The notes under the pieces were generated by a model, which was not told the DNA's origin, ran no database searches, and saw only the letters and a program-made list of their open reading frames with translations. A stretch of DNA of 64,000 nucleotides. It comes from Candidatus Nezhaarchaeales archaeon. Its GTDB lineage: Archaea; Thermoproteota; Methanomethylicia; Nezhaarchaeales; JAWCJE01. Below, in pieces: positions 30,545 through 56,775 of the stretch (position 1 is the stretch's first letter; every line of letters begins with the position of its first letter). The stretch lies in the NCBI GenBank assembly GCA_038853715.1, contig JAWCJE010000010.1, forward strand, positions 378 through 64,377, written 5' to 3'. The position numbers were made by a program, and so were the translations under genes.

Positions 30545-30545
30545 G

Positions 30546-40647: not shown

Positions 40648-41604
40648 TTAGAGCTCTAGGGATCTCCTTAAGGCCTCCTGATTAATCTTACCATTGGTGA
40701 AGCTTTTGCCGGTGGTTTTACAGGTGACGGTTATCTTCCCGATGGTGAAGAAGGAGTTATCTAGCTTCGACCAGTCGAAGTTAACCGCTTTTAAAGCTTC
40801 GTATGATAGTTTACCGTAATCAGCCCAGGCGGTAGCGGGGGCTTTACTAAGCATTTCCTTCAATAGTGCTTCCTCCTCATCTATTAGGTAGCTTGCTACT
40901 CCTCCGTAGAGTAAGGCATCCTCCTGCTTAGCTGTTGAAACACCTACATCGGGGTGGGGCGGCATTATGGGCGCGCAACCACTAGCGAAAACAACATTCT
41001 TCGGGTCAAGCCCTAGGAACTCTAACCTGTAGAGGCCTGTTTCAGCTACTCTCCCTGATACTTGGACCGAGCCGGCCATGGATGCCGTGGTGGTTAAAAG
41101 TATGTAAAGGTTTTTAGGGTCTACCTTACAGTCCGTAGCTACTCGTTGAGCTACTTCATCGGTAGGTTTCCTCGTGGTTTCCATCACTATTACTGCTTCG
41201 TTATACTCATCTTTGTAGCCGACCTTCTCAAGAACCTTCTTCGGCTTAAGCGCTAAGGCTCTAGCAGGCCCTGAAGAGGGAGCGAAGAAGTCCCCTACCT
41301 TCACCATCCAACCGGCTAATTGACAGCCTAATAGCGAGATTGCTGGATGATCTGTTGCAACCACGATGCTCGGCATTTCGAGGTCTCCGTAGGACTTATA
41401 CGTTAACCAGCATTGAGCTAATCCTCCTAGACAGACTTCTGTTAGCTTTAACCCCGCTAGGTAGCCGCCAGCTGCTTCTAGGCCCGTATCTATAACTGTT
41501 GCTCCGCAGGGTAGCTTCTCAACCTTCACCCTATACTCTTCAGGGTGGTTTAAGAGTTCGTTTACAACCCTCATGGCTAACCTATTAACGCTTATCCCCG
41601 GCAT
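40648..41604 (-). CDS. mch: Methenyl-tetrahydromethanopterin cyclohydrolase
   Basis: The N-terminus SVNRLAMRVVNELLNHPEEYRVKVEKLPCGATVIDTGLEAAGGYLAGLKLTEVCLGGLA matches the Mch family. It is 318 aa. Confidence 0.8.
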   Translation of the reverse strand: MPGISVNRLAMRVVNELLNHPEEYRVKVEKLPCGATVIDTGLEAAGGYLAGLKLTEVCLGGLAQCWLTYKSYGDLEMPSIVVATDHPAISLLGCQLAGWMVKVGDFFAPSSGPARALALKPKKVLEKVGYKDEYNEAVIVMETTRKPTDEVAQRVATDCKVDPKNLYILLTTTASMAGSVQVSGRVAETGLYRLEFLGLDPKNVVFASGCAPIMPPHPDVGVSTAKQEDALLYGGVASYLIDEEEALLKEMLSKAPATAWADYGKLSYEALKAVNFDWSKLDNSFFTIGKITVTCKTTGKSFTNGKINQEALRRSLEL

Positions 41605-41706
41605 ACCGATCCATCCACACGCATAAGGCGCTGGCTTTAATAGGTTTTGATCAAGTTTTCCGCTCGAAACTCCACTGGAAATGTGAGTTGAAACATTAAG
41701 TATGAC

Positions 41707-42558
41707 TTGAACCGTCCTTCTCTAACTCGTGGCGAGGCTCATTTACGCTACCACTTAATAAGCTTATACGCTATTAAACTGTTAAGAGGCTGGTTTAACG
41801 TGAGCGTTAAGGTCGAGATTTACGGTATAAAGGTTAATGGTGAAGTGAAGGAGGGGGAGGATCTCGCGCGCTTAATTGTTGAGGAGGCGGAGCGTCAAGC
41901 TAACGGGTTACTCGATGGCGACGTGGTAGTTGTAACCTCGAAGATAGTGGCTAAAGCTGAAGGTAGGCTGGTAAACCTGAAAAGGGTCCGTCCATCGGCC
42001 TTCGCTAAAAACCTAGCTAGGTATACTGGTAAACCGGCTACGCTTATCGAAGTCATTCTTAGGGAGTCGAGGTCTATAACAAGGGTTAGGAGGGGTACGA
42101 TAATAGTTGAAACGAAGCATGGGTTTATCTGTGCGAACGCTGGTGTGGATAGGTCAAACGTGAAGCCGGGCTTCCTAACGCTACTACCTAAGGATCCTGA
42201 TAGGTCGGCCCAGATGCTGAAAAGTAGGATTAAGGAGTTAACGGGTAGAGACGTAGCCGTGATAATATCGGATACTCAAGGAAGGCCCTTCCGAGAGGGG
42301 CAGGTGGACGCTTCCATAGGTCTAGCCGGGCTTGAACCTATTAACGATTTAAGGGGGCTTGAAGACCTTTACGGGTATAGGTTAAGGGTTAAACGTATAG
42401 CGATTGCTGACGAACTAGCCGCTGCAGCCGAATTAGTTATAGGGCAAGCTAGTGAAGGTATACCGATAGCCGTAATTAGAGGCGTAAAGTATCGTAGCTC
42501 TGAAAAGGCTACGGTTAAAAGGCTACTCCGCCCAAAGAGAAGAAGCCTCTTCTTGTAG
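41707..42558 (+). CDS. cofE: Coenzyme F420-0:L-glutamate ligase
   Basis: It has CofE motifs VVTSKIVAKAEGR...ETKHGFICANAGVDRSNV...SDTQGRPFREGQVD. Confidence 0.7.
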   Translation: MNRPSLTRGEAHLRYHLISLYAIKLLRGWFNVSVKVEIYGIKVNGEVKEGEDLARLIVEEAERQANGLLDGDVVVVTSKIVAKAEGRLVNLKRVRPSAFAKNLARYTGKPATLIEVILRESRSITRVRRGTIIVETKHGFICANAGVDRSNVKPGFLTLLPKDPDRSAQMLKSRIKELTGRDVAVIISDTQGRPFREGQVDASIGLAGLEPINDLRGLEDLYGYRLRVKRIAIADELAAAAELVIGQASEGIPIAVIRGVKYRSSEKATVKRLLRPKRRSLFL

Positions 42559-43310
42559 GGGATGCTTCAAGGTAGGGGTATCGTCAAGTTAACGAGTAGG
42601 AGCCGCGTATAGTTAATGAGTCAACTTGACAGCAGCTATGTAGGGTGTTTGCAGTAGTTCATTACCTCCTGGCTATTGAGTTTATTACGTTTAGTATTGT
42701 TGTGAATGTTTTATCCGGTTTAGGGAACCCCTTTTTAGTCTAGTTTTAACGATCTGAATACTTATTCTACCTAAATTCGAACGTTACGTGTTTACGTTTA
42801 GCTTTAACGTATTCTAACGCGTTATACCATGGCCCTCCGCCGTATACGTATCAGCGTTAAAACCAAGCCTACCTACAATCCTTAACGCATCTATGGAAGC
42901 TCTACCATCAAAGCTTACGCAAACCCCTATGATTCGTTTAAAGTTTAAACCTCCTATAAACTAAGCCAATTTCATCCATAGCTACAAGCCTAACCTTAAG
43001 CCTTAGATAAGGAATACCAATAACTACATAAACTCATGAAGGGAAAACCGTACTTAAATGAAGCAGCCCTATAGGATAAATCCGGGTAATAATCTATTAA
43101 CGTTTTAACCATATCAACGGAAGAGTTGCAATCACCGTAGGGTTTAACCAAAGGTATACCTAGTAGGGTTTGAACTAAGCGTTCCCTAATAATCCTAGAA
43201 ACCGATAGACTGATACATATATGTAGGTGTGAAAAACTATTTAAGCTCCTTAATGCTCTACTAGCTGGACCTTTAGCGAAGTATAAGCACATCTTCAGGC
43301 GGAGAGTAAC

Positions 43311-43667
43311 ATGAGCGGAGGAACTACTGAGGAGAAAAAGCCTGTAGAGGAGAAAAAACCGCCAGTTAAAAAACCTGCGCCACCACTAAAACCCATAAGT
43401 GAAAATACTGTTCTAGTGGGGCGTAAGCCCGTAATGAACTACGTTTTAGCCACCGTTATGCAGTTCAATCAAGGTGCCGACAAGGTTATCGTTAAAGCGC
43501 GAGGACGAGCTATATCGAAGGCCGTTGATGCGGTAGAAATCGTAAAGATGCGCTTCCTAACGGACCAAGTTGAAGTCAAGGATGTAAAGGTCGGCACCGA
43601 GAAGGTAGGCGAAACAGGGCAGGAGCGCAACGTATCTACCATCGAGATAGTGATGGGTAGGAAGTAA
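43311..43667 (+). CDS. albA: Alba DNA/RNA-binding protein with a Lys/Pro-rich N-terminal extension
   Basis: Its core [48 protein letters not shown]...[10 protein letters not shown] matches Alba. It is preceded by a 30-aa extension, [22 protein letters not shown]. Confidence 0.8.
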
Positions 43668-43689
43668 CCGTTAAACGGAAACAACCTCG

Positions 43690-43715
43690 AACAATCTCCT
43701 ATTTCTCTCTTATTT
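43690..43715 (+). terminator. Oligo-T terminator downstream of the Alba gene
   Basis: The sequence CTCCTATTTCTCTCTTATTTTTTTCTTTGTTCC lies immediately after the stop codon. Confidence 0.4.
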
Positions 43716-44750
43716 TTTTCTTTGTTCCTTAACCTTAGGGCCTACGTAGGGGGATGGCCTTCACGTACCTTCACGTATATCGTTGTTTATCATATCCACT
43801 ACGATTAATGACTTTAAGCCTAACGCCTCTAAACCTAAAGGAGGCATGGGTAGGGCGATCTTAGCTTAACTCTACGTAGCTTGCCTCATTTATTCTTAAA
43901 ATAGTGTCGATAGCAATTAGCGTGGATGGAGCGCCATGCTTAAACGTGTTTTATTGAAGGCCTGTTAAAGAGCGTACTCAAACACCCGTAGATAGTGACG
44001 TAAAGCTTTACAACGCGCTCGGCGTAACCATTGACTGCGAAGCTTCAGTATGTACACAGAAGAGTAAATGGAGAGCCGCGGAGTTCAGGGTTACACTATA
44101 CAACGAGAAAGCATACGTCCTTAAGCCGCCGTACGATGCGCTTAAACAACACGGGTACAGAGTATACCTGTATAGGGCGTCTAAAGGCAGAACAATAAGC
44201 TACGGTAGCTTCAGCAACGACTATCGCCACATCGGAGTATGCGCTAAAGATCATGTTAAGCGCCTCCCAGAGAACGTTGAACTAATGCTTCCACAGAAAC
44301 AGCTTAACCGTTTCCCTCGTACTAGTAAATACGAGCGTCGATATTCATCAGGTTGACGTCTATTGAGGAGTCGAAACCCGTTCTACCGGGTTTAAGGGCT
44401 TCTGGACCCGGAAGTAAGCCTCAATAAGCCTTTCAAGCCCCTAAACGCTTTATCGTACTTCATCTTTAACGCTTCAACTAGAAACTCCAGTAGAAGCAAA
44501 GGTTCTTAACCAATATTTCTACTGGAGGCTCCGCTGGAAACGCCGGTTTCTTAACATTAGCTTCTACCAGAGGCTTTATCCTCCATTATCCTTAGCGAAG
44601 CCGATCGATCCGCCTAAGGTTATGTTACTCAACGTATTCCCTTAGGTTCAGCGTTAGGCCGTTTCTCCTCGATTCATAGGGTTGCGTAAGTTTAATATTG
44701 ATGGAAACCTCCGTTAAAGGGAGGTAGTTTGGTTCATCAGTGATGGCTAC

Positions 44751-45869
44751 ATGGCTTCATCCTTTATACCGATAAATAAGCCTATAATGGGCGACGAGGA
44801 GGTTGAAGCAGTTAAGCAGGTAATAGCTTCAGGTATATTAACCGATTGGAGGCCCCAAGGAGGGCCCATGAATAGAAGGTTTGAGGAGTGTTTCGCTTCC
44901 TTCATAGGGGTAAGGTACGCGGTAGCTGTAAGCTCTGGAAGCGCTGCGCTTCACGCTGCGCTTTTAGCAGCAGGCGTAAAACCGGGTGATGAGGTTATTG
45001 TTCCTGCTTTCACGTTTCCAGCTACAGCTAACATGGTCCTTATGGCTGGGGCTAAACCGGTTTTCGCCGATATAAGTACGGAAACCTACAATATCGACCT
45101 TGAATCCGTGAAAAAGCTTATATCGGCTAGGACGAAGGCGATAATTCCCGTTCACCTTTACGGGCTACCGGCTGACATGGATCCGGTGATGGAGTTAGCT
45201 GAAGAACACGGCCTAATGGTTATTGAAGACGCGGCCCAAGCCCATGGAGCCAAGTATAAGGGTAGGTATACCGGTACGCTAGGACATATGGCTTGCTTCT
45301 CCTTCTACCCCAGTAAGATAATATCGACCGGCGAAGGAGGTATGGTAACAACTAACGACGAGGAGCTAGCTCTTAAGCTGCGAAGCATTAGAACCCATGG
45401 ACAAGTTAAGGGTTTTGATTCTAAAATCTTAGGCCATAACTATCGTATGCCGGAGATCGAAGCGGCCATAGGCCTAGTTCAAATGAAGAGGCTACCAGGC
45501 TTCCTCGAGGCTAGGAGGCGTAACGCGAAGCTATTAACCGAGGGGCTTTCGGACCTAGACGAGTTAAAGCTACCTGTTGAGCCGCCCGGGTTAAACCATT
45601 GCTGGTACCTTTACACGGTGAGGCTTACTAAGCGGCAATACCTTAGGGATTTAATCGTTAAAAGGCTTAATCAAGCTGGTATAGGGGCTGCTATCTACTA
45701 TGAAACCCCGGTTCCCCTTCTACCGCTCTACAGTAGGCTTCGTAGGCGTAGTACTTACCTTAACGCGATAGTAGCTTCTAGATCGGTTTTTCAGCTTCCA
45801 GTCCATCCAGGCGTTTCGGAGGAACAAGCCTTAAACATTACTAAGGAGGTGAAGAAGGCTTTAACTTGA
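44751..45869 (+). CDS. DegT/DnrJ/EryC1/StrS-family PLP-dependent sugar aminotransferase
   Basis: It shows typical family conservation throughout, including SGSAALHAAL and a probable PLP-Lys region (FSFYPSKII). It is 372 aa. Confidence 0.8.
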   Translation: MASSFIPINKPIMGDEEVEAVKQVIASGILTDWRPQGGPMNRRFEECFASFIGVRYAVAVSSGSAALHAALLAAGVKPGDEVIVPAFTFPATANMVLMAGAKPVFADISTETYNIDLESVKKLISARTKAIIPVHLYGLPADMDPVMELAEEHGLMVIEDAAQAHGAKYKGRYTGTLGHMACFSFYPSKIISTGEGGMVTTNDEELALKLRSIRTHGQVKGFDSKILGHNYRMPEIEAAIGLVQMKRLPGFLEARRRNAKLLTEGLSDLDELKLPVEPPGLNHCWYLYTVRLTKRQYLRDLIVKRLNQAGIGAAIYYETPVPLLPLYSRLRRRSTYLNAIVASRSVFQLPVHPGVSEEQALNITKEVKKALT

Positions 45870-45947
45870 AGCCAGTAATAGTTTAAGCCCACGTGTTCGT
45901 AGCCCGGTTAACTCTTCAATCGTTGAAGCGAGGCTCGATATAACGTC

Positions 45948-46799
45948 ATGAAAGGTCTCCGCCTTAAAAGGGTAAGGACGCCCTTCTGGCTTCCGAGGGT
46001 TAATTTAAAGCATGAAATCCTTAAGTCATTAGATGGCGTTGTTCGTCCGGGTCACGTGGTGGTATTATCGGAGAAGGCTCTCTCGGTGGCCCTAGGTTTA
46101 ATAGTGGATGAGGGCTTGGTTCGTCCAAGTTTAGCGTCGAAGGTATTCACGTTCCTATGGATGCGTCTAGTATGGGGCTACCTTTTAGGGCCTTTATGCG
46201 GCCTTAAACGCTCAACGCTAAACGCGCTTAGGAAGTATCCGATTAGGGAGGGCGCGGCTCATAAACAGTTGGTGTTAAGGGTTGCGGGAATCATGCAGGC
46301 CTTTAAACCCTTTTCGGAGGGTGGTATTGACGGTAGCAACCTTCCATATAGGTATGTTAGCTTACCATTACCTAACCCGCAGGAGCTAGCGGAAGAGGTT
46401 AAGGGGTGGGTGAAGGCTGGGTTAGGTGTTGATGTATCTGTGGCGATAGTTGATAGTGATAGGACCTACGTGTTTAAAGGTACGCCTTTAAGGTTTTCAG
46501 CTAGGAAGACCTACGTTAAGGGGTTGGTGTCATTAGGCTTTCTAGCCTATATCGCTGGCCGCTTATTAAGGAGGTGGGTTAAACCCTTTGCAACGCCTCT
46601 TGCGCTAGCTGGTTTAAAGCTACCAATTGATACGTTATTACTAATAGCGGAGGCCGCGGATAGGTTAAGGGGTTATGGTGCTGGTCGAAACGTGTTTGAA
46701 ATGGCGGAACGCTTTAAAACTTCGATAAACGGGGTAACGTGGAGTATGATTAGAAGCGTAAAACATTACCCAATTATACTAGTTGAAACTTTAAAATGA
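45948..46799 (+). CDS. CofE-like (F420-0:gamma-glutamyl ligase family) divergent paralog
   Basis: It has GGIDGSNLPY...VDSD motifs reminiscent of the CofE GxDxSN motifs but is otherwise divergent. It is 283 aa. Confidence 0.35.
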   Translation: MKGLRLKRVRTPFWLPRVNLKHEILKSLDGVVRPGHVVVLSEKALSVALGLIVDEGLVRPSLASKVFTFLWMRLVWGYLLGPLCGLKRSTLNALRKYPIREGAAHKQLVLRVAGIMQAFKPFSEGGIDGSNLPYRYVSLPLPNPQELAEEVKGWVKAGLGVDVSVAIVDSDRTYVFKGTPLRFSARKTYVKGLVSLGFLAYIAGRLLRRWVKPFATPLALAGLKLPIDTLLLIAEAADRLRGYGAGRNVFEMAERFKTSINGVTWSMIRSVKHYPIILVETLK

Positions 46800-46811
46800 A
46801 AAAGGGTTAAT

Positions 46812-47741
46812 TTACTTGTAGAACTTCCTCGCCGCTTCAATAGCTTCCTTATTGAATACCTTAAAGGGCCCCAGTTTCCCTCCGAAGTTTACGGCTGTAA
46901 TCTTTTTAACGCCCGATACCTTAGCGGCGGCTAGTATCCCTACTCCTTGCGCTATTTTAACGCTTTCGGCGTTCAACCCGTTAATGACGATTTCAAGTAC
47001 GCTTTTAACTTCTAAGGGGACCTTGGATTCCGATACCTTATCCTTTATGGTTGGGCAGAAGAGATGGTTTGTACTGGCTGGAAGCTTAGGATACTTTAAC
47101 GAGCCGACCTTCGAGCCGCTTCTAACTATGCCTCCTGGGAAGGGCATAATTACGTTTCTACAGGTCTTCCTGATGGCTTCGACGGCGGCCATAGCCCCCT
47201 TTAACGCTGAATCCTCGCTATCACCCATAACTATAATGTTTCCTCCAGCTACACCCTTCACTACGCCTAAGGTGTCTTCAACTAGGAACCATCCCTGCAT
47301 AACCGGTATCCTATACATGGTCCTTCCGTACACCTTTTCAACGGCCTCGAAGCCGTCGCCGAACTTACCTACGGCGCTACCTATATGCATCTTCCTCTTG
47401 GCTTGAGGTATACCGTCGAACGCGGCCGTGGTTGGACACGTTAAAATGCATTGCCCCAGCCTTGCCAACACTTGGAACTTTAACTCGGGTACTGTGTTAT
47501 GGTATATGTGGATTAAGGCGCCCGGCCTACCATCAGGTGTTTCCTCGGGGCTTAATAGCCTTTCAACACCTGCTTCAGCCGGAGACATTATTATAGAGCT
47601 GGCGAAGCCGGTGGCTACTTGAGCCGCTGTTGTAGCCCAGTATTCATCACGCGCGGTAATCAGTATGCGCGTGCCAACCATTGGAAACGCTTCAGCAAAT
47701 GTATCCTCAACTTCAACTCCGTCCACGGTAAATGAGGACAT
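46812..47741 (-). CDS. ftr: Formylmethanofuran:tetrahydromethanopterin formyltransferase
   Basis: The N-terminus VDGVEVEDTFAEAFPMVGTRILITARDEYWATTAAQVATGFASSIIMSPAEAG matches Ftr. It is 309 aa. Confidence 0.8.
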   Translation of the reverse strand: MSSFTVDGVEVEDTFAEAFPMVGTRILITARDEYWATTAAQVATGFASSIIMSPAEAGVERLLSPEETPDGRPGALIHIYHNTVPELKFQVLARLGQCILTCPTTAAFDGIPQAKRKMHIGSAVGKFGDGFEAVEKVYGRTMYRIPVMQGWFLVEDTLGVVKGVAGGNIIVMGDSEDSALKGAMAAVEAIRKTCRNVIMPFPGGIVRSGSKVGSLKYPKLPASTNHLFCPTIKDKVSESKVPLEVKSVLEIVINGLNAESVKIAQGVGILAAAKVSGVKKITAVNFGGKLGPFKVFNKEAIEAARKFYK

Positions 47742-47860
47742 GGGTTTGCACCCCCTCTGAATACGTATAGCTATTTATAAAGTTTGATCCCGCCATAACT
47801 TTCCATATACCGATACTCTAAGGCTAACGTTCTCAGGCTTTTCCAGCCTTCCTCTTCAAT

Positions 47861-49018
47861 ATGCTTCGAAGCCTTAGCCCCTTCCTACTTATCTGCTTAA
47901 TATGCATACTCAAATACAAGCATATACCTCTCTATATCCGGGGCTACCGATTGTCTAGGGCGGCAGCGATAATCCTAGCTGGAGGTATGGGTAGACGTTT
48001 TCAGCTTCCCCAGCAGCCTTGGAGGGATAAGGCTTTGGAGGTTGTTAACGGTAAACCCATGCTGAGGCGCGTGGTTGAAGCGGCGTTAAGTTTTACCGAT
48101 GAGGTCATAGTTACCGTTAACTCCTTAAGTAGGAAGCTAATCTACGAGAAGCTCCTAGAAGGGTTAAGCGGGGTGAAGGTGGCCGTTGATGGAGGCGGTA
48201 TGGCTTCAGGCCCCTTAATAGGGTTGAGGACTGGTTTAAAGTGGCTAACGGCGGAGAAAGGCGTATCGATACCTTGCGATTCACCCTTCATTTCACCATC
48301 CATACTAAGCTATTTAGCGCAAGCGGTGGATGGCGTGGATGTGGCTATGCCTGTTTGGGGTAATGGGAGGCTTGAACCCTTATTTCTAGCTTTAAGGAGG
48401 GCGATCGTAGGCGTGGGGGTCGATATCCTAGTTAAGCTCGGTAGGAGGAGGCCTGACGACCTTATTAGGATCGGTTTAAGGACGCGTTTAATACCTGTAG
48501 GCGAGCTTAAAACCTTGGATCCGGAGCTTAAAACCTTCGTTAACGTAAATCGGCCTGAAGACCTATTAGTTAAACGGATCGCTAGTATTAATGATACGCC
48601 TAGGGCTTCTCTTCAAACCCTTGAGGCTCATCAAATTCCGCTTGAGAGGCTTAAAGAATTAAGCGTGGCTCTACCGTTAACAGGCTTTAAAGACTTAAAG
48701 TCTATCGAGGAGGTCTTCGTTGGATCGCCCTTCATTATCGGGGCCTTATATGAGCAGGTTGGCTTCGCTGAGTTAAACCGTAACCCTCAAGAAGCTTTAG
48801 GAGCGTTAAGGTACGCCTCCCTACAATACCTTATCGAGGCGGACTTCTACGAGGCTAAGGGGCTTTTATCGCTGGCTGGACACGCCTTAACGGATGCTTA
48901 CCGCTGCTTAAAGCCTTTAAACGGGGTTAAGGCTGAAGCAGTATTGAGTCGTGCTTTAAAGACCTACAGCAAGGTAGGGCTTAGAAGGAAGGGAGGTAAA
49001 GCCGTTGACGAAGCCTAG
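47861..49018 (+). CDS. MobA-like molybdenum cofactor guanylyltransferase with a roughly 190-aa C-terminal extension of unknown function
   Basis: It has the NTP-transferase motif AAIILAGGMGRRF. Its stop overlaps the fdhD start. Confidence 0.5.
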   Translation: MLRSLSPFLLICLICILKYKHIPLYIRGYRLSRAAAIILAGGMGRRFQLPQQPWRDKALEVVNGKPMLRRVVEAALSFTDEVIVTVNSLSRKLIYEKLLEGLSGVKVAVDGGGMASGPLIGLRTGLKWLTAEKGVSIPCDSPFISPSILSYLAQAVDGVDVAMPVWGNGRLEPLFLALRRAIVGVGVDILVKLGRRRPDDLIRIGLRTRLIPVGELKTLDPELKTFVNVNRPEDLLVKRIASINDTPRASLQTLEAHQIPLERLKELSVALPLTGFKDLKSIEEVFVGSPFIIGALYEQVGFAELNRNPQEALGALRYASLQYLIEADFYEAKGLLSLAGHALTDAYRCLKPLNGVKAEAVLSRALKTYSKVGLRRKGGKAVDEA

Positions 49019-49838
49019 TTTAAGCGTTAGGGTTAATAAGCTAAACGTTAAGCTGGGAAGCGTTAAGCAAGAAGTATTTGAGGTAGCAGTTGAAGCACCC
49101 GTTTCCTTAAGCGTTAACGGTAAGTACCTAAGGACCTTGGTGGCTACCCCCATTATGCTTACTGAGCTAGCCCTAGGGCATTTATACAGCGAGGGGATAA
49201 TAGACTCCTTAAGCGACGTGAAGGACGTAATCGTTAAGGAGTTAAGCGTCGACGTCCACCTGTTTAAAGACGTAAATACAAAGATTTTAGCAGCTCTTAC
49301 AACGAGGGTTACGACAACCGCTTGCGGCTCGGCTGAAACCTCCTTTTTAAGCCTTTTGGATAGGATTAAAAAGCCCATCGTTCTATCAAGTCTCACCGTA
49401 GACCCTAACATAATACCTAAAGCGGTTTTAAAGCTTAACGAGGTCGGCGTCCTTTACAAGGCTACTAAAGCCACGCATTCAGCCGTAATACTTAGTACGG
49501 ATGGTAACCTCGTAGCGGTAGCGGAGGACGTAGGAAGGCATAACGCGGTGGATAAAGCGATAGGCTTAACCCTTCTAAAAAAGGTTAACCTATCAGGATG
49601 TATATTAGTATGCTCCGGTAGGCCTACGGCGGACATGACGTTGAAAGCGGCTAGGGCTGGCATACCGGTCGTTCTATCCTTATCGTTACCGACAGATTTG
49701 AGTATTAAGATAGCTGAAGAAACAGGGGTTACATTGGCATCGGTTAGGGGGCGGGACTTAACCATTTACGCGCATCCTGAAAGGTTGCTTAAAAGCTTAA
49801 TTCGTAAGCCATATGACCTAAGTACTAACCGGTGTTGA
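49005..49838 (+). CDS. fdhD: FdhD-family sulfurtransferase (formate dehydrogenase/molybdoenzyme accessory protein)
   Basis: It has the FdhD signature EDVGRHNAVDKAIG and a TACGSA cysteine loop. Confidence 0.7.
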   Translation: MTKPSLSVRVNKLNVKLGSVKQEVFEVAVEAPVSLSVNGKYLRTLVATPIMLTELALGHLYSEGIIDSLSDVKDVIVKELSVDVHLFKDVNTKILAALTTRVTTTACGSAETSFLSLLDRIKKPIVLSSLTVDPNIIPKAVLKLNEVGVLYKATKATHSAVILSTDGNLVAVAEDVGRHNAVDKAIGLTLLKKVNLSGCILVCSGRPTADMTLKAARAGIPVVLSLSLPTDLSIKIAEETGVTLASVRGRDLTIYAHPERLLKSLIRKPYDLSTNRC

Positions 49839-50398
49839 GGAGTATGCCTAAACCCTTTACGCTAGCGGTGTTCGGCTTTAAGAATAGCGGTAAAACAAGC
49901 CTTGTAGAGTGGTTAGTTTCTAACCTGGTTAAGGAGGGGTTTAAGGTTGCTACCTTTAAGCATATACATCATCCGGGCTTCACTATCGACACTAAGGGCA
50001 CTGATACTTGGAGGCATGCTAAAGCTGGAGCTAACCCTGTAGTTAGTGTATCTGATGGTGAGGTGGCTTTAATATTAAAGCGGCCCACCCCGATGATGGG
50101 TTTAAGCGGCCTATTGACGTTAATTAAGGGCTTCGACGTCGATATCGTCATGTTTGAAGGTTTTCATAGGGTATTGGGGGGAAGTAAGGAAGTCTATAAG
50201 ATATTGATTGCTAGAAGCCAGCAGGAGTTAGAGAACCTCATACCTGAAACGGAGCAACCCATCATAGCCCTGGTGGCCTCCTTCCAACCTAAGCCTGGCT
50301 TAAACCTCCCAGCCCCCTTAATAATGAGCGATAATAAGCAAGTTCTCCTCGCTATCGTTAAACAGGCCTACTTAAACTATAAAGCCGCGAAGTATTAA
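49832..50398 (+). CDS. mobB: Molybdopterin-guanine dinucleotide biosynthesis protein B
   Basis: It has a P-loop (FGFKNSGKTSL) and an FKHIHH motif, and is 188 aa. Confidence 0.65.
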   Translation: MLRSMPKPFTLAVFGFKNSGKTSLVEWLVSNLVKEGFKVATFKHIHHPGFTIDTKGTDTWRHAKAGANPVVSVSDGEVALILKRPTPMMGLSGLLTLIKGFDVDIVMFEGFHRVLGGSKEVYKILIARSQQELENLIPETEQPIIALVASFQPKPGLNLPAPLIMSDNKQVLLAIVKQAYLNYKAAKY

Positions 50399-50457
50399 GT
50401 AGGAAGGCTACTCTTCCTAGCCTTTATGGAGGCTTTTATACCGTTTAGAAATCCTCT

Positions 50458-51414
50458 TCAAGGGTGGATGACGTTTAAGTGCTTGTTTAACTCTTTTATG
50501 AGGCTTTTAAAGTTCTCCTTCGGGATTCTAGCTCCACTCGCCATAGGATGGCCTCCTCCATCCCCGCCCAGCCTTGGTGCTATATGCCTTAAAATGTTGT
50601 TTAGGTCGATCTTCTCGTTGTAAGTCCTTAGGCTCATGTCGATCATACCTTTTCGTTCTTCCCCGGCGATACCTACGAGGGCATCGGTTAAGCCGCGTAT
50701 ATACATCGCGGTTTTACCTAGGGAGAAGGGGAAGTTGAGGATGTACGCGATTTTCCCCTCAACGTTGACCCGGCCCTTAAGCTCCTTTACGACCTCCTCT
50801 TCCTTTCTAGTGTATTGTAGGGCTAACCTTACTAGGTCTTCGTTAAAGCTCGGCGGCTTATTATTGGAGAGGTCTTGAACTATTCTTCGCTTAGAGTCAT
50901 AGCTTCTCCCTAAGGCTTCAACCCCTTGAACGAGTATCCCCGTCTCTAAATATAGGGTTCTCTTATCCCACTTTCTTAGGAGGGTTTGAATTAAGGGTGT
51001 GTTATCCAAGTAGTCGCCTATGGCTCCATAGATGGCTATCCGCGCGTACGTAGGGTCTAGCCTAGATTGAAAGTAAGAATAGACTTGTTCTGACGCTGAG
51101 GCGTTAAGGTTATACGTAACCATCCCGGGGACTTCGTTTCTCGAAATACCTTCCGGTAGTGGGTGGTGGTCGATGTAAATTAATGCCCCCTCATGTACGA
51201 TGGCCTTAAACCTTTGTAGGATTTGGTTTAAACGGATCTCGGATAGAGCGATATCGCATATAATCACTTTATCCGTATCCTTAGCCCTTTGCAGATCTTC
51301 CAGTAGGCCGTAAGGATGGGTGAAGAAGACTTGGGCACCAGGATTAGCTGCTAAGGATAAGGCGCCGGAGCAAAGGCCGTCTGTATCGCCGTGGGTAAAT
51401 ATCCAAACGTCCAT
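50458..51414 (-). CDS. DHH-family phosphoesterase (NrnA-like, DHH-DHHA1)
   Basis: It has an N-terminal HGDTDG motif, an internal DHH motif (IDHHP) and a DHHA1-like GGGH at the C-terminus. Confidence 0.65.
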   Translation of the reverse strand: MDVWIFTHGDTDGLCSGALSLAANPGAQVFFTHPYGLLEDLQRAKDTDKVIICDIALSEIRLNQILQRFKAIVHEGALIYIDHHPLPEGISRNEVPGMVTYNLNASASEQVYSYFQSRLDPTYARIAIYGAIGDYLDNTPLIQTLLRKWDKRTLYLETGILVQGVEALGRSYDSKRRIVQDLSNNKPPSFNEDLVRLALQYTRKEEEVVKELKGRVNVEGKIAYILNFPFSLGKTAMYIRGLTDALVGIAGEERKGMIDMSLRTYNEKIDLNNILRHIAPRLGGDGGGHPMASGARIPKENFKSLIKELNKHLNVIHP

Positions 51415-51572
51415 TTAATATCCTCACGGCCTAAATGGTCTTTAACCAAGTTACGCTACCGTCTTCTATAAAGATTCCTTAAAGCCTAGCCTTATTAGCT
51501 TCGGCTAACCTACCCCTTAGTTATGAACGAAAAGTATATACTTAAACTCGGTTTTTATATCGAGGTGATTTA

Positions 51573-52433
51573 ATGGCGAGCGGAAAGCCGCCAGTAGTAA
51601 AGGTAGGCATTCTAAAGCTCGGCTGCGTTGGTACAGCGCCTCTTCTCGAGTACCTCCTTGATGAGAGGGCTGACCGAGAGGATATAGATGTTAGAGTGGT
51701 TTCGTCGGGCGCTAAGATGGATCCTGATAAGGCGGAGGAGGTAGCGCGGAAGCTCATCGAGTTTAAGCCGCATTTCGCCGCTGTTGTAAGCCCTAACGCT
51801 GCTCTACCAGGACCTACGAAGGCGCGTGAGATCCTTTTAGAGGCCGGCTTACCGGTTATAGTGATCTCCGACGCGCCAGCTAAGAAGGCTATTCAAAGCT
51901 TAGAGGCTAAGGGCTTTGGCTACATCGTAGTTGAGGGCGACGCAATGATAGGGGCTAGAAGGGAGTTCTTAGACCCCGTCGAAATGGCCTGCTTTAACGC
52001 TAACATAATAAAGGTGTTAGCGATAACAGGTGCTTACAACGTTATAGTTGAACAACTTGATAAGGTTATCGAGGACTTAAAGGAGGGAAGGAAGCCGGAG
52101 CTACCGAAGGTCGTAGTTGATAAGGAGGTAGCTTTAAAGGCGGCTGGCTTTAATAACCCGTACGCTAAAGCTAAGGCCATGGCCGCCTACGAAACAGCTA
52201 GGAAGGTAGCAGATCTAACCGTTGAGGGGTGCTTCAAGGTTCAAGAGTGGGAGAGGTACGTACCACTAGTAGCTGCGGCGCATGAGATGATGGAAGTAGC
52301 AGCTAAACTGGCTGATGAGGCAAGGGAGCTTGAAAAACCAGCCGATACTTTATCGCGTAGGCCTCATGCTCGCGACGGCACGTTAATGTCGAAGCTAAAA
52401 CTCATCGAGAAGCCGGTTAAGATTAAAAAGTAG
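51573..52433 (+). CDS. mtd: F420-dependent methylene-tetrahydromethanopterin dehydrogenase
   Basis: VKVGILKLGCVGTAPLLEYLLDERADREDIDVRVVSSGAKMDP...MIGARREFLDP...NPYAKAKAMAAYE matches Mtd nearly motif for motif. Confidence 0.8.
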   Translation: MASGKPPVVKVGILKLGCVGTAPLLEYLLDERADREDIDVRVVSSGAKMDPDKAEEVARKLIEFKPHFAAVVSPNAALPGPTKAREILLEAGLPVIVISDAPAKKAIQSLEAKGFGYIVVEGDAMIGARREFLDPVEMACFNANIIKVLAITGAYNVIVEQLDKVIEDLKEGRKPELPKVVVDKEVALKAAGFNNPYAKAKAMAAYETARKVADLTVEGCFKVQEWERYVPLVAAAHEMMEVAAKLADEARELEKPADTLSRRPHARDGTLMSKLKLIEKPVKIKK

Positions 52434-52441
52434 GGTTAACG

Positions 52442-54187
52442 ATGTCCGTTCAAACTACGTTCACCCTAATAACGGGAAGGTCCTTGGATCAAGGGCGAGC
52501 GTTGGAGAAGGGTAAGTTCACTGACGACTACTTATCCAGCGTAGCTATATGCGAAGTGAACCCTGAAGACTTAAAATTGGTAAGGGTTAAGAGCGGGTCA
52601 AACGTTAAGGTGAAAACGGCGTACGGAGAGGTCGTCGTTAAAGTAAAAGAGTCGCAGGCCGTAAGCCCGGGAACCATATTTATACCGATGGGCCCTTGGG
52701 CTAACGTACTTGTTGACCCTAATACTTACGGGTCCGGGATGCCGACCCTTAAGGGCGTTCCGGCTACGCTTGAGCCAACCGATGAAGCCGTTCCAACCAT
52801 AGCGCAACTCATCCAAAAATTCTCCAGTAGGGCCTTCGAAGTAAAACTTGGACAAAAAACGGTGGATCCCCCTCCTCTAGAAGGAGTTATTAAGGACGTT
52901 GTATGCGCTTTTTGCGGTTGTGTTTGCGATGATATAGAGGTAACCATTAAGGGCGGAGTTATAGAGTCGGTTAAAGGCGCGTGTGGTTTAGGTTTAGCTA
53001 AGCTCTTAAACTACAGTAGGGAAAGGGTTTACAGTCCGATGGTTAGGAGGAGTCAAAGCTTCGTTGAGGTAAGCTTTGAAGAGGCCGTGGAGGAGGCCGC
53101 TGATATACTCGTTAACGCGAAGTACCCCTTACTTTACGGTTGGTCTTCCACCTCTAATGAGGCCGTAAGGCTCGGTGTTGAGTTGGCTGAGTTGGTGGGA
53201 GGCGTTATAGATGATACGTCGGTTACGTGTCACGGGCCTACGACCCTAGCCTTACAGGAGACGGGTGTTGTAACCGCTACACTCGGTCAACTTAAGAACC
53301 GCGCGGATTTAATGGTTTACTGGGGTTGTAACCCGGGTCATGCCCATCCGAGGCATACAGTTCGCTATTCGGCTATGGCTAAAGGCCGCTTCGTTAAGGG
53401 TAGGAGGGAACGTAGAATCGTAGTAGTTGACGTTAGGGAGACGCCGACAGCTAAAATGGCGGATCTCTTCGTCAAGGTTCAACAGGGTATGGACTACGAG
53501 CTCCTAACAGCGCTTCGCATGGCGGTTAAAGGTTATACCATAGAGGTTGAAGAGGTTGCCGGCGTACCTAGGAATATGATCTTTAAACTAGCCGATATGT
53601 TGACGTCAGCTAAGTTCGGGGTTATATTCTTTGGTATGGGCGTAACCATGACGGCTGGGAAAGGTAGAAACGTTGAGGAAGCTATAAGGCTCGTTCAAGA
53701 ACTAAACGATCATACGAAGTTCACGATATTAGCTATGAGGGGACACTACAACGTTACTGGCTCCGGCGCCGTTATGACGTGGTTAACCGGATACCCCTAC
53801 GCTGTCGACTTTAGTAGGGGCTATCCAAGGTATAACCCGGGCGTTACGTCTTCGACGGATATACTTATGCGTGGTGATGCTGATGCTGCCTTAATAGTGG
53901 CTTCAGACCCGGTATCGCACTTCCCGATGAAGGCCGTGGAGAACCTTTCCCGAATACCCGTAGTGGTTATAGATCCGAGGTGGAGCCCGACGGCCGCTAT
54001 AGCCAACGTTTTCATACCGTCGGCCTTCGTAGGCATCGAGGTCGAAGGAACCGTGTATAGGATGGATAAGGTACCTATTAGGGCTAAGAAGCTCTTAGAA
54101 CCTCCGCCGGGCGTTAAAAGCGACGTAGAGATTCTTCAAGCGTTAATCGATAGGGTTAAGGCTAGGAAGCTTAAGGGAGGTGGTTAA
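52442..54187 (+). CDS. fwdB: Formylmethanofuran dehydrogenase subunit D fused to subunit B (Cys-containing, non-selenocysteine form)
   Basis: The N-terminal roughly 130 aa are FwdD-like (TLITGRSLDQGRA...FIPMGPWANV). They are followed by FwdB with VVCAFCGCVCDD and a VTCHGPT motif, which has Cys at the position where Sec-type enzymes have U. Confidence 0.75.
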   Translation: MSVQTTFTLITGRSLDQGRALEKGKFTDDYLSSVAICEVNPEDLKLVRVKSGSNVKVKTAYGEVVVKVKESQAVSPGTIFIPMGPWANVLVDPNTYGSGMPTLKGVPATLEPTDEAVPTIAQLIQKFSSRAFEVKLGQKTVDPPPLEGVIKDVVCAFCGCVCDDIEVTIKGGVIESVKGACGLGLAKLLNYSRERVYSPMVRRSQSFVEVSFEEAVEEAADILVNAKYPLLYGWSSTSNEAVRLGVELAELVGGVIDDTSVTCHGPTTLALQETGVVTATLGQLKNRADLMVYWGCNPGHAHPRHTVRYSAMAKGRFVKGRRERRIVVVDVRETPTAKMADLFVKVQQGMDYELLTALRMAVKGYTIEVEEVAGVPRNMIFKLADMLTSAKFGVIFFGMGVTMTAGKGRNVEEAIRLVQELNDHTKFTILAMRGHYNVTGSGAVMTWLTGYPYAVDFSRGYPRYNPGVTSSTDILMRGDADAALIVASDPVSHFPMKAVENLSRIPVVVIDPRWSPTAAIANVFIPSAFVGIEVEGTVYRMDKVPIRAKKLLEPPPGVKSDVEILQALIDRVKARKLKGGG

Positions 54188-54189
54188 AC

Positions 54190-55902
54190 GTGGAGTTCCT
54201 AATAAGGAACGGCTACGTTTACGACCCCATTAACGGTATTAACGGGGAGAGGATGGACGTAGCCATTAAGGACGGTAGGATCGTAAGTACCGACGCCATT
54301 ACCCCTTCTAAGGCTAAAGTTATTGACGCTACAAACATGTTGGTGATGCCGGGCGGCGTTGATATGCATAGCCATATAGCTGGGCCTAAGCTTAACGTCG
54401 GCAGGGTTATGAGGCCTGAGGATCACTACCGCGTTTTCATGAAGGCCATACCCGGAGTTAGAAGGTCTGGTACCGGTAGAACTACGCCTAGCACCAACGT
54501 GATTGGCTATAAGTATGCTCGGATGGGGTGGACTACCGTGATCGAGCCCGCAACGCCGCCGCTTGAAACGAGGCATACCCATGAGGAGCTTGACGATATC
54601 CCGATAATAGATAAAGCTTGCTTTCCGCTATTAGACTCCAACTGGTTCGTCCTTGACTACCTAGCTAAAAAGGATTATGAGAAGTGCGCCGCCTTCATAG
54701 CGTGGATACTTAACGCTACGAAGGGTTACGCCGTAAAGATCGTGGATCCGGGTTCAGGTGAAGCTTGGGGTTGGGGCGGATCGATACGTAGCCTCGACGA
54801 CCAGGTACCGGGCTTCGGCGTTACACCCCGCGAGATCGTAAGGGGGTTATGTAGGGTTAACCAGATGTTAAACCTACCGCATCAAATACACGTCCACTGT
54901 AATAGGCTCGGTTATCCAGGTAATTACGTTGTCACGTTAGATACCATGGCCTCCGTCTCCGACTTAACGTCATCTGACGGTAGGCCAAACATACACATTA
55001 CCCACTGCCAGTTTACTGGTTACGCTGGTACAACGTGGGCTAACCTAATGCCGGGCGGCGAGAAGATAGCTAAGTACGTTAACAATAATCCCCATGTAAC
55101 TCTAGACTTGGGTCAAGTGGTATTTGGCGACGCTACCACCATGACGGCGGACGCGCCCTTCGAGTTCGTACTATACCATATGACTCGGGGTAAATGGTCA
55201 AGCTCCGACGTAGAGGCTGAAAGCGCCGCTGGCATAGTGCCGTATAGGTATAGGAGGAGTAACTACGTAAACACCGTTCAATGGTGTATAGGGCTGGAAC
55301 TTATCTTACTAGTTAAGGATACGTGGCGCGTGATCATGACCACTGACCATCCTAACGCTGGCCTCTTCACTAGGTACCCGCAAATAATATCCTGGCTCAT
55401 GAGTAGGAGGGCGCGTGAAGCCGTAATGGACAAGGTTAATAAGAGGGCTCTAAAGAAGTCGGCATTACCAGCTATAGACCGCGAGTTAACCTTTTATGAG
55501 GTAGCCATAACTACTAGGGCGGCGCCAGCAAAACTCCTAGGGTTAACCGGTAAGGGCCATTTAGGTGTTGGAGCCGACGCCGATGTAGCGATTTACAACG
55601 TAAACCCCAAGGAAGTAGATCCTTCAAAGAGCCCGGAGATTATTGAGAAAGCTTTCAAGAGGGCCGCTTACACCATTAAGGGCGGGGAGATAGTAGTTAA
55701 GGACGGTGAAATAGTTCAACATATTTACGGTAAAACCCTCTACGTTAAACCCGAAGTCCCTGAGGACTTACTTAAGGCTACGCTAAACGATGTAGAGCCT
55801 AAGTTTAAGGAGTGGTACTCGATATCCTTCAGTAACTACCCGATCATGGATCACGAGGTTAGAGCGCTTAAGGCTATACCGGTAAAAACCAGTTTGAAGT
55901 AG
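54190..55902 (+). CDS. fwdA: Formylmethanofuran dehydrogenase subunit A (amidohydrolase)
   Basis: MEFLIRNGYVYDPINGINGERMDVAIKDGRIV...VMPGGVDMHSHIAG matches FwdA. It is 570 aa. Confidence 0.8.
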   Translation: MEFLIRNGYVYDPINGINGERMDVAIKDGRIVSTDAITPSKAKVIDATNMLVMPGGVDMHSHIAGPKLNVGRVMRPEDHYRVFMKAIPGVRRSGTGRTTPSTNVIGYKYARMGWTTVIEPATPPLETRHTHEELDDIPIIDKACFPLLDSNWFVLDYLAKKDYEKCAAFIAWILNATKGYAVKIVDPGSGEAWGWGGSIRSLDDQVPGFGVTPREIVRGLCRVNQMLNLPHQIHVHCNRLGYPGNYVVTLDTMASVSDLTSSDGRPNIHITHCQFTGYAGTTWANLMPGGEKIAKYVNNNPHVTLDLGQVVFGDATTMTADAPFEFVLYHMTRGKWSSSDVEAESAAGIVPYRYRRSNYVNTVQWCIGLELILLVKDTWRVIMTTDHPNAGLFTRYPQIISWLMSRRAREAVMDKVNKRALKKSALPAIDRELTFYEVAITTRAAPAKLLGLTGKGHLGVGADADVAIYNVNPKEVDPSKSPEIIEKAFKRAAYTIKGGEIVVKDGEIVQHIYGKTLYVKPEVPEDLLKATLNDVEPKFKEWYSISFSNYPIMDHEVRALKAIPVKTSLK

Positions 55903-55914
55903 GAGGCGATAAAT

Positions 55915-56775
55915 TTGGCTAAGCTTAACGAGATGGTATTAACCCCTAAGTACGAGTTTAAGGTACCGGTGGAAGCTAAATGTATATCGCCGGACGTTTT
56001 CGCAGGTAAAAGCTTAAGTGATATACGCGCACTACCGGTTTACGAAGGTAATACGAAGAGGGCTTTGATCGACCTTTTCAACATTGAAGGTAATCCTGGG
56101 GCTACTAGTGCTGAAACGGCTATAGTAATTCGAGGAGACGCGTGGAAGGTTAGACGTATAGGGGAGGGTATGAGTAACGGTAAGATAATCGTAGAGGGAC
56201 GTGTAGGAGCATATCTAGGGTTAAAGATGAAGGGTGGAACCATAACCGTTAAAGGCGACGCCGAATCATGGCTAGGCGCTAAGATGAAGGGTGGAACCAT
56301 AGAAGTATTCGGGAACGCGGGCGACTGTGTTGGAGGCGCTTTTAGGGGTGAAGGACCTGGTAGGGGGATGAGCGGAGGAACCATAATAATTCACGGTAAC
56401 GTGGGGGCTGAAGCTGGACGCGGTATGGGGGGCGGCACCATAGTTGTAGATGGTAACGCTGCTTTCCTACCTGGAGTGGATATGGTTGGAGGGGCTGTAG
56501 GGATTAAGGGGGACTGTCAAGGTAAAGCTGGAGCCAGGATGAGGGGGGGACGCGTAGTTATAGGCGGCTTCCTACCATCAGTACTGCCGAGCTTCTACGT
56601 GGATGAAGTAAGGGAATCGATAAAGGTTGGCCCTGAAAAAATGGCTGGACCATTCTACGTCTTCGTCGGCGACGTCTTGGCCGACGTAAAGTGTCGAGGA
56701 AGGCTATTCGTATCTGTAGCTAGAAACCAGCACCTAAAACGGTACGAGGAACTACTAACTACTCCAACGCTTTAA
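55915..56775 (+). CDS. fwdC: Formylmethanofuran dehydrogenase subunit C
   Basis: It has repeated GGTI(x)V(x)GnaG beta-helix motifs typical of FwdC and of the glutamate synthase C-terminal domain. Confidence 0.75.
   Translation: MAKLNEMVLTPKYEFKVPVEAKCISPDVFAGKSLSDIRALPVYEGNTKRALIDLFNIEGNPGATSAETAIVIRGDAWKVRRIGEGMSNGKIIVEGRVGAYLGLKMKGGTITVKGDAESWLGAKMKGGTIEVFGNAGDCVGGAFRGEGPGRGMSGGTIIIHGNVGAEAGRGMGGGTIVVDGNAAFLPGVDMVGGAVGIKGDCQGKAGARMRGGRVVIGGFLPSVLPSFYVDEVRESIKVGPEKMAGPFYVFVGDVLADVKCRGRLFVSVARNQHLKRYEELLTTPTL

Follow-up and report, generated by a model that had tools for sequence, protein, structure and literature searches.

Genes for the methyl branch of the archaeal Wood-Ljungdahl pathway in a hot-spring Nezhaarchaeales archaeon, most likely a member of the Jinzhaarchaeceae

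Results

The C1 genes and the Fwd complex

The DNA analysed here, a stretch of 64,000 nt from a Candidatus Nezhaarchaeales archaeon that we refer to as the window, contains genes for the conversion of one-carbon (C1) units bound to methanofuran (MFR) and tetrahydromethanopterin (H4MPT). Together with a mer gene located outside the window, they probably constitute the methyl branch of the archaeal Wood-Ljungdahl pathway. The sequence inspected consisted of the window, about 15 kb of its left flank and 1.3 kb of its right flank, and the encoded proteins were scored with Pfam and NCBIfam/TIGRFAM models, the bit scores being compared with the curated cut-offs.

The gene for the methenyl-H4MPT cyclohydrolase Mch (40648..41604, minus strand) encodes a protein that scores 327.5 bits with TIGR03120 (cut-off 228.8), matches PF02289, and is 77% identical to the Mch proteins of loci L008 and L011, which belong to the Methanonezhaarchaeceae genus WYZ-LMO8. 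It is divergent from the gene for the F420-0:L-glutamate ligase CofE (41707..42558, plus strand; TIGR01916, 293 bits, cut-off 180.65), whose role is to supply the F420 cofactor, here for Mtd and Mer. The gene for the formyl-MFR:H4MPT formyltransferase Ftr (46812..47741, minus strand; NF002554, 407.6 bits, cut-off 297; PF01913 and PF02741) is separated by other genes from a run of four genes on the plus strand. These encode the F420-dependent methylene-H4MPT dehydrogenase Mtd (51573..52433; NF002162, 411.5 bits, cut-off 297), a fusion of FwdD and FwdB (52442..54187; 580 bits with TIGR03129 for the FwdB part, cut-off 327.8, and 121.6 bits for the FwdD part), the amidohydrolase subunit FwdA, which acts in formyl-MFR formation (54190..55902; TIGR03121, 784.5 bits, cut-off 392.75), and FwdC (55915..56775; TIGR03122, 245.8 bits, cut-off 130.65). 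An earlier annotation made from the sequence alone, which we call the original prediction, had named all these genes; each of them is an open reading frame (ORF) with exactly the coordinates it gave, and passes the curated cut-off widely. Since Fwd, Ftr, Mch and Mtd are all above cut-off, the upper part of the archaeal C1 branch, from CO2 to methylene-H4MPT, is present, as had been proposed.

The gaps between mtd and fwdDB, fwdDB and fwdA, and fwdA and fwdC measure 8, 2 and 12 bp, respectively, and mtd is preceded by a TATA-like box and a GGTGA ribosome-binding site. These features indicate that mtd-fwdDB-fwdA-fwdC form one operon. The FwdD-FwdB fusion is a single ORF of 581 aa, in which FwdD occupies residues 6-126 and FwdB residues 152-572; the identical fused ORF is called in the independent assemblies L082 and L083, and the fusion is also found in the relatives L003, L005, L008, L011 and L019.

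In alignments to solved Fwd complexes, the catalytic residues of FwdA and FwdB are intact. FwdB aligns to chain 5t5i_B with 482 bits, and keeps both the Cys-His pair at the metal ligand (TCHGP) and the N-terminal four-cysteine [4Fe-4S] motif (CxxCxxxC...C) of that chain. Its active-site ligand is Cys, not Sec; chain 9sfi_Q prints X at this position. The FwdD domain scores 110.6 bits with 8rja_D, and FwdA, which scores 645-649 bits with 5t5i_A and 8rja_A, retains the HxH, Lys and DHP motifs of the metal site. The score of FwdB against FhcB of methylotrophs (6s6y_B) is 52 bits. Because of this difference from the 482 bits obtained with the redox-active 5t5i_B, FwdB would be a CO2-reducing/formyl-MFR-oxidising subunit and not an Fhc-type hydrolase, which disfavours the formaldehyde or formate oxidation that had been entertained as one role of the pathway.

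The first bases of the window (1-15) are the 5' end of a TupA-like binding-protein gene. It belongs to a tungstate-type ABC transporter of three genes that extends leftwards (12272-15029 of L121, the locus of the window species that reaches left of the window) and that, relative to the synteny seen in Muzhaarchaeceae, is inserted between the PRT and M50 peptidase genes. Its genes match tungstate models best (TupA 175.6, TupB 169 and WtpC 277.5 bits), though all below cut-off, and this nearby transporter therefore gives no more than a hint of tungsten in the Fwd enzyme. The tungsten-specific NCBIfam exception models for Fwd also scored below their cut-offs.

Cofactor genes near the module

The genes between ftr and mtd are mobA-fdhD-mobB and, on the other strand, a DHH/DHHA1 gene. 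The first three, all on the plus strand, encode a MobA-like molybdenum-cofactor guanylyltransferase (47861..49018; PF12804, 95.5 bits; TIGR02665, 73 bits, below cut-off), an FdhD-family sulfurtransferase/chaperone for pterin-cofactor enzymes (49005..49838; PF02634, 215.8 bits) and MobB (49832..50398; PF03205, 101.7 bits). Overlaps of 14 bp (mobA/fdhD) and 7 bp (fdhD/mobB) couple FdhD translationally to MobA and MobB. As MobA, FdhD and MobB are responsible for the synthesis and sulfuration of the bis-pterin guanine dinucleotide cofactor required by FwdB, the position of their operon is functionally coherent. The MobA-like protein is 385 aa long, and no family matches the C-terminal part of approximately 140 residues that follows its MobA domain; the start of the protein differs between gene callers, which give 327, 355 or 385 aa.

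Two further genes may be related to H4MPT. A RimK-family ATP-grasp ligase resembling MptN (37721..38599, minus strand) is a candidate H4MPT:glutamate ligase, with 278.8 bits for NF040720 (below the cut-off of 350) and 227.8 bits for TIGR00768 (above cut-off), and has homologs near Mch or Mtd in L007-L009 and L011. A CitG-family protein is encoded at 15334..16401 (plus strand; PF01874, 231.5 bits). In Muzhaarchaeceae-type loci, its counterpart adjoins genes for DUF447, GCHY-1, MptE-like, DHNA and flavoprotein-Fer4 proteins, an H4MPT-biosynthesis cluster.

A divergent CofE-fold protein beside Ftr

The gene convergent with ftr, at a distance of 12 bp, encodes a divergent CofE-fold protein (45948..46799, plus strand) that scores 33 bits with PF01996 and 18.8 bits with TIGR01916, and is 27% identical to the true CofE of the window. 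PGAP labels it as CofE, despite a score far below the cut-off for that enzyme. The protein has more than 1310 homologs, of which the named ones are mostly from Bathyarchaeia or Thermoproteota, and the motifs SEKA, SEGGIDGSN and DSD are invariant in homologs. Its gene adjoins ftr in L001-L005, L008 and L011, that is, in Nezhaarchaeales, Bathyarchaeia and Hecatellales. The AlphaFold2 model (pLDDT 91.7) has CofE as its sole fold match (2phn and 7uld, TM 0.52-0.64), with an extra helical insert. We found no link in the literature between a CofE paralog and methanofuran; this protein may be a ligase tailoring MFR or H4MPT.

Mer and the extent of the methyl branch

The window itself contains no mer gene, as tblastn with the Mer protein of L011 gave E>1. 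The same contig carries a mer gene some 6 kb outside the left edge of the window (minus strand; positions 8059-9063 of L121, approximately -6955 to -5951 in window terms; contig JAWBVH010000004.1). Its product of 334 aa scores 513.8 bits with TIGR03555 (cut-off 348.7) and, in comparison with solved structures of Mer, 432 bits. Thus, a stretch of about 64 kb on one contig encodes all five steps of the methyl branch (Fwd, Ftr, Mch, Mtd and Mer). Neither in the window nor in the flanks seen were genes for mcr, mtr or cdh found.

This mer gene is located about 1 kb upstream of the TBP gene, on the opposite strand. In the Muzhaarchaeceae-type genomes (n=4), mer immediately precedes a small peptidase-like gene and TBP, and in the Methanonezhaarchaeceae it comes after fwdC. 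Mer of the window species is 70-72% identical to the 'Methanomethylicia' and Hecatellales-type proteins, and only 53-57% identical to other Nezhaarchaeales Mer proteins. This is unlike Mtd and Ftr, which are 77-78% identical to those of Muzhaarchaeceae, and suggests that Mer is a replacement with a history different from that of Mtd and Ftr. Several homologs of the L011 Mer were considered as the Mer of the window species and rejected: P0161 belongs to co-occurring 'Methanomethylicia' bins, P0151 to the Muzhaarchaeceae metagenome-assembled genome (MAG) GCA_038894875.1, P0159 to S9B5_HD70, P0156 to a Muzhaarchaeceae-type genome from Guaymas, and P0154 to a further related lineage.

Host lineage and family

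All eight window proteins tested (8/8) are named 'Candidatus Nezhaarchaeales archaeon' in NCBI, and the best named matches of TBP, encoded just left of the window, are not from Bathyarchaeia: its nearest named relatives are from Methanomethylicia, Verstraetearchaeota, Culexarchaeia and Thermofilaceae. The gene order TBP, OTCase, PRT, M50 peptidase, GNAT, Rpb6 and Arcadin-1 is shared over a long range with Muzhaarchaeceae-type genomes, and metagenomes from Chinese hot springs have repeatedly yielded assemblies of the species, the longest contig being 157.8 kb. By these proteins and this synteny, the host is assigned to thermophilic hot-spring Nezhaarchaeales (class Methanonezhaarchaeia, Thermoproteota). 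The original prediction had placed it in a TACK lineage such as Bathyarchaeia. The Bathyarchaeia-type host is not borne out, the resemblance being confined to the C1 genes and directed toward one Hecatellales/Bathyarchaeia subclade. The wider TACK placement holds, owing to Arcadin-1, the affinity of TBP and the synteny; the mix of context genes cited for it is not diagnostic, and had at first suggested Archaeoglobi.

The Nezhaarchaeales (GTDB c__Methanomethylicia; o__Nezhaarchaeales) have been split into three families by Kohtz, Nupp and Hatzenpichler (Sci Adv 2025; PMC12700198). The Methanonezhaarchaeceae (f__WYZ-LMO8), in which genus WYZ-LMO8 holds 8 of the 9 species clusters, are mostly Mcr-positive; the Muzhaarchaeceae (f__B40-G2), among which S9B5_HD70 (locus L001) is listed, have neither mcr nor mtr; and the Jinzhaarchaeceae (f__JAWCJE01) lack mcr, keep no Mtr subunits other than MtrA and MtrH, and have one Fpo-like complex (PMC12700198). 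The absence of mcr holds for all MAGs of the Jinzhaarchaeceae and Muzhaarchaeceae (preprint Table S6 of Kohtz et al. 2025, PMC12700198).

Ftr, Mtd and Fwd of the window are 52-67% identical, and Mch 77%, to those of the WYZ-LMO8 loci L008 and L011. Mtd and Ftr are 78% and 77% identical, respectively, to those of Muzhaarchaeceae L001, Mer is about 54% identical to that of both Muzhaarchaeceae genera (L001 and L114 being from S9B5_HD70, and L113 from the other genus), and the synteny differs in detail. The species would thus belong neither to WYZ-LMO8 nor to either Muzhaarchaeceae genus, which leaves the Jinzhaarchaeceae by elimination. In addition, a Jinzhaarchaeceae MAG has been obtained from the Jinze sediment metagenome JGI 3300000866, which contains the exact AGOG protein of the window. 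On this circumstantial evidence of elimination and sample co-occurrence, the species is most likely a member of the Jinzhaarchaeceae, and with this family assignment and the survey of Kohtz et al. (2025), the host is probably non-methanogenic.

Other genes of the window

Among the additional genes named in the original prediction, those for NreA (27388-28743), AGOG (25349-26230), NikR (20736-21128) and the archaeal bifunctional PGI/PMI (61936-62955) were confirmed, as were EtfB/EtfA (29747-31499) and one acyl-CoA dehydrogenase (57656-58807). The 'Hjc-like nuclease' (17645-18352) is not upheld, as it gave a weak match to UPF0102 and no NCBIfam match. The 'beta-oxidation' genes were likewise over-read: the acyl-CoA dehydrogenase is a generic one, below every equivalog cut-off, accompanied by EtfAB, and there is no hydratase, hydroxyacyl-CoA dehydrogenase or thiolase within the window. 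EtfBA is followed by a gene for a membrane protein of 676 aa (31556-33586) with a NarI-like N-terminus, two [4Fe-4S] motifs and two CCG domains, the best match being TfrB/HdrD-like. EtfBA, this NarI/HdrD-like protein and the separate acyl-CoA dehydrogenase may form an Etf:quinone-type electron route, which is absent from the discussion in PMC12700198.

A radical-SAM gene at 21575-23098 (plus strand) encodes the tetraether lipid (GDGT) synthase Tes (NF045702, 646 bits). It had been considered as an H4MPT methylase on account of a Pfam Zn_ribbon_HMPTM domain, which proved misleading in view of the NCBIfam score. A DUF22 protein is encoded immediately downstream of fwdC on the opposite strand (56825-57253, minus strand); in Muzhaarchaeceae-type loci, DUF22 genes are found beside Tes (L117-L119) and a few genes from CitG (L115).

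Arcadin-1 (14850-15188; PF18653, 118 bits) adjoins the gene for RpoK/Rpb6 (approximately 14220-14516) and an ORF of 381 aa without family match (12863-14008), and this region (12863-15188) possibly belongs to a cytoskeleton locus of the crenactin type. A helicase of 641 aa resembling Hef (9852-11777, minus strand) scores 603 bits (cut-off 610) with the Hef model; as the alignment is limited to positions 2-516 of the 781 in the model, the helicase part is present and the nuclease domain lacking. The gene for a CitMHS-family transporter (39072-40357, plus strand) is split over two adjacent ORFs in different frames, which cover profile positions 3-142 and 166-336; the split might be due to a frameshift in a pseudogene or to an error in the assembly. 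An imperfect tandem repeat of 23 bp (TGTTGTAACACGTTATGTGGTTG), present in 3-4 copies in the intergenic region at 37318-37425, is located upstream of an unannotated ORF (36886-37242, minus strand), and may be a binding array for a putative regulator. The region of about 1.1 kb between the genes for Alba and a DegT aminotransferase (43668-44750) contains no ORF of at least 80 aa and no Rfam match even at E<=0.05. The Rfam scan of the window gave no match, either at the gathering threshold or at E<=0.05, and no tRNA genes were found in it.

Discussion

The methyl branch and its likely host

Together, the evidence makes it likely that the locus encodes the methyl (H4MPT/MFR) branch of the archaeal Wood-Ljungdahl pathway in a hot-spring member of the Nezhaarchaeales, which would most likely be one of the Mcr-less Jinzhaarchaeceae. 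The reactions assigned here are the established biochemistry of these enzyme families. FwdDB would reduce CO2 to formate at a Cys-ligated tungsten- or molybdenum-bis-pterin site and FwdA would condense the formate with MFR, so that FwdDB-A-C would overall interconvert CO2, MFR and reduced ferredoxin with formyl-MFR. Ftr would then transfer the formyl group reversibly to H4MPT, Mch would cyclise formyl-H4MPT to methenyl-H4MPT, and Mtd and Mer would use F420 in the reversible steps to methylene-H4MPT and methyl-H4MPT, respectively. As to cofactors, MobA-FdhD-MobB would serve the pterin of FwdB, with the tungstate-type transporter at the left edge as a further support gene set, CofE would serve F420, and the MptN-like and CitG-like proteins H4MPT. 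In a host without Mcr, the branch would join carbon monoxide dehydrogenase/acetyl-CoA synthase (CODH/ACS), at which acetyl-CoA is made or cleaved, and the biosynthetic demand for C1 units, rather than methanogenesis. We infer the absence of Mcr and the link to CODH/ACS, and as far as can be read from the sequence, the net flux could run in either direction.

The Wood-Ljungdahl pathway with both its branches is conserved across all three families of the Nezhaarchaeales, the carbonyl branch largely so (PMC12700198). The finding is therefore correct and already known for the order; the novelty implied in the original prediction is not upheld, as the pathway of this lineage and the FwdBD fusion have been published (PMC12700198).

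Several points weigh against this reading of the locus. The family was reached by elimination and sample co-occurrence rather than by phylogenomics, and the assembly accessions of the window species do not appear in the genome table of Kohtz et al. (2025). With regard to mcr, mtr, cdh, hydrogenases and terminal reductases, the part of the genome seen is limited to the window and the flanks given above. Within the window, there is no FwdF/FwdG polyferredoxin or any ferredoxin ORF, the sole ORF with ferredoxin-type Cys motifs being the HdrD-like protein at 31556-33586, and thus the electron partner of FwdB is not encoded locally; FwdF/FwdG subunits may be encoded elsewhere in the genome, and in YNP3N they are encoded in a second cluster (PMC12700198). 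Finally, the metal could be tungsten or molybdenum, the tungstate models being the best matches of the transporter but below cut-off.

One alternative is that the host is a genuine Methanonezhaarchaeceae-like methanogen, with Mcr and Mtr encoded elsewhere, in which the module would support methanogenesis by CO2 reduction or methyl dismutation, as in Ca. Methanonezhaarchaeum fastidiosum. In its favour, the host shares the order and NCBI label with such methanogens, the FwdDB fusion and the order mtd-fwdDB-fwdA-fwdC match those of YNP3N and L008/L011, Mch is 77% identical to that of the latter loci, and mcr was looked for in the window and its flanks only. However, apart from Mch, the C1 proteins share 52-67% identity with those of WYZ-LMO8; the genes of the cluster ftr-mtd-fwd-mer-mch are dispersed here, with a Mer of another type; both the synteny and the trees of Mtd and Ftr connect the window with the branch of the Muzhaarchaeceae, which lack Mcr; a sample in which the species occurs also yielded a Jinzhaarchaeceae MAG; and no mcr has been reported in either sister family (PMC12700198). 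We therefore regard a methanogenic host as unlikely.

Origin of the module

It is also conceivable, though we think it improbable, that the module was recently transferred from Bathyarchaeia/Hecatellales or a euryarchaeote into an otherwise unrelated TACK host. Consistent with such a transfer, Ftr, Mtd, FwdDB, FwdA and FwdC are 64-80% identical to their counterparts in the Bathyarchaeia/Hecatellales loci L003-L005, above the identity to methanogenic Nezhaarchaeales, and Mer is closest to the 'Methanomethylicia' and Hecatellales types, as described above. Against it, the GC content is uniform across the module (0.47-0.49, with 0.43-0.49 in the rest of the window). In a scan with Mtd of one genome per species, the closest titled relatives among the matches listed were 'Ca. 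Methanomethylicia archaeon S9B5_HD70' at 78%, a 'Nitrososphaerota' MAG at 76% and MAGs of Bathyarchaeia and Hecatellales at 67-73%; Archaeoglobi followed at 58-68% and classical methanogens at approximately 52-57%.

Trees of Mtd, Ftr, FwdA and FwdDB were built by neighbour-joining and carry no support values. In the Mtd tree, the window groups with L001 and the Muzhaarchaeceae-type L002, followed by the subclade of L003-L005 and then by the Methanonezhaarchaeceae, and separate positions are taken by other Bathyarchaeia, Hecatella orcuttiae, Baldrarchaeota and Archaeoglobi. The Ftr tree places the window, L001/L002 and L003-L005 in one unresolved group. In the FwdA and FwdDB trees, the partner of the window is L003/L005, where a comparison with L001 and L002 is precluded by the lack of fwd next to their mtd. 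The nesting of L003-L005 among Nezhaarchaeales, away from other Bathyarchaeia, fits a transfer out of, or between, these lineages and not a recent import, and the non-C1 neighbours NikR, MobA and MobB are also common to L001/L002. These relationships are those expected of a module inherited within the Nezhaarchaeales, with exchange involving one Hecatellales group, and not of one that the window species imported recently.

An Archaeoglobi-type euryarchaeote running the pathway in reverse for acetyl-CoA oxidation, to which DUF22, EtfAB, the acyl-CoA dehydrogenase, the NarI/HdrD-like Fe-S membrane protein and a GC content of about 47% might point, can be dismissed with near certainty, being refuted by the Nezhaarchaeales label in NCBI, the separate clade of Mtd (58-68% identical to Archaeoglobi) and the Thermoproteota relatives of TBP, with Arcadin-1 present and DUF22 found in Muzhaarchaeceae-type loci as well.

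Possible role and significance

Returning to the methyl branch in a Jinzhaarchaeceae host, the electron-transport chain of this family is reported to consist of a single Fpo-like complex, and there would thus be no obvious route for H2-driven CO2 reduction if the family assignment holds. Together with the acyl-CoA dehydrogenase, EtfAB and the NarI-like/CCG protein, such a minimal chain makes an oxidative role possible. We tentatively suggest, as a speculation with the odds against it, that the retained H4MPT branch runs oxidatively as the terminal route for acetyl-CoA from acyl-CoA oxidation (involving the acyl-CoA dehydrogenase, EtfAB and the NarI/HdrD-like protein), in an Archaeoglobus-like lifestyle that would have arisen independently in Thermoproteota, and perhaps aided by the CofE-fold ligase adjacent to Ftr, which would tailor MFR or H4MPT.

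A lineage that probably lost methanogenesis would thus keep a complete and apparently functional methanogen-type C1 pathway together with genes for its cofactors, which bears on how remnants of methanogenesis are repurposed. Similar retention has been shown earlier for Bathyarchaeia and Archaeoglobi. The details added here are the rearranged cluster, a history of Mer unlike that of Mtd and Ftr, the inserted operon for pterin-cofactor maturation and the nearby tungstate-type transporter. Among the new leads, we consider the CofE-fold protein that accompanies Ftr in TACK genomes to be the most useful.

Comparison with known systems

The cultured strain YNP3N has fused FwdBD within the cluster ftr-mtd-fwdBD-fwdA-fwdC-mer-mch (PMC12700198). 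Ca. Methanonezhaarchaeum fastidiosum YNP3N and WYZ-LMO8 share with the window species the order, the enzymes, the FwdD-FwdB fusion, the gene order ftr/mtd-fwdDB-fwdA-fwdC and a CofE-like gene beside ftr. However, in these methanogens, which have Mcr and Mtr, the cluster continues with fwdC-mer-mch, whereas in the window species mtd and mer are about 58 kb apart and Mer belongs to another sequence type, Mch is encoded 10 kb away beside CofE, and mobA-fdhD-mobB and the DHH gene are inserted between ftr and mtd; the protein identity is 52-77%.

Among the matches listed, the Muzhaarchaeceae archaeon S9B5_HD70 (L001 and L114) is the closest titled relative for Mtd (78%) and Ftr (77%). Both genomes have NikR, the CofE-like gene, MobA and MobB as neighbours, and share the synteny around TBP, M50, Rpb6 and Arcadin-1. 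In S9B5_HD70, however, mtd of L001 is not followed by fwd, and mer is directly upstream of the signal peptidase and TBP genes on the same strand, its product being about 54% identical; the tungstate-type transporter and sugar-nucleotide genes are insertions of the window species.

The tungsten enzyme FwdABCDFG of Methanothermobacter wolfeii (5t5i) resembles the system described here in FwdA, FwdB, FwdC and FwdD, with conserved catalytic and cluster-binding residues. Unlike in that enzyme, FwdD is fused to the N-terminus of FwdB, and there is no gene for FwdF/FwdG in or beside the operon.

Archaeoglobus fulgidus is a non-methanogen that uses the H4MPT/MFR pathway for acetyl-CoA oxidation. The window species differs from it in phylum, with Mtd 58-68% identical and no terminal electron-acceptor system identified in the sequence inspected, but would be alike in combining a methanogen-type C1 pathway, in a non-methanogenic thermophile, with an acyl-CoA dehydrogenase, Etf and an HdrD-like membrane protein.

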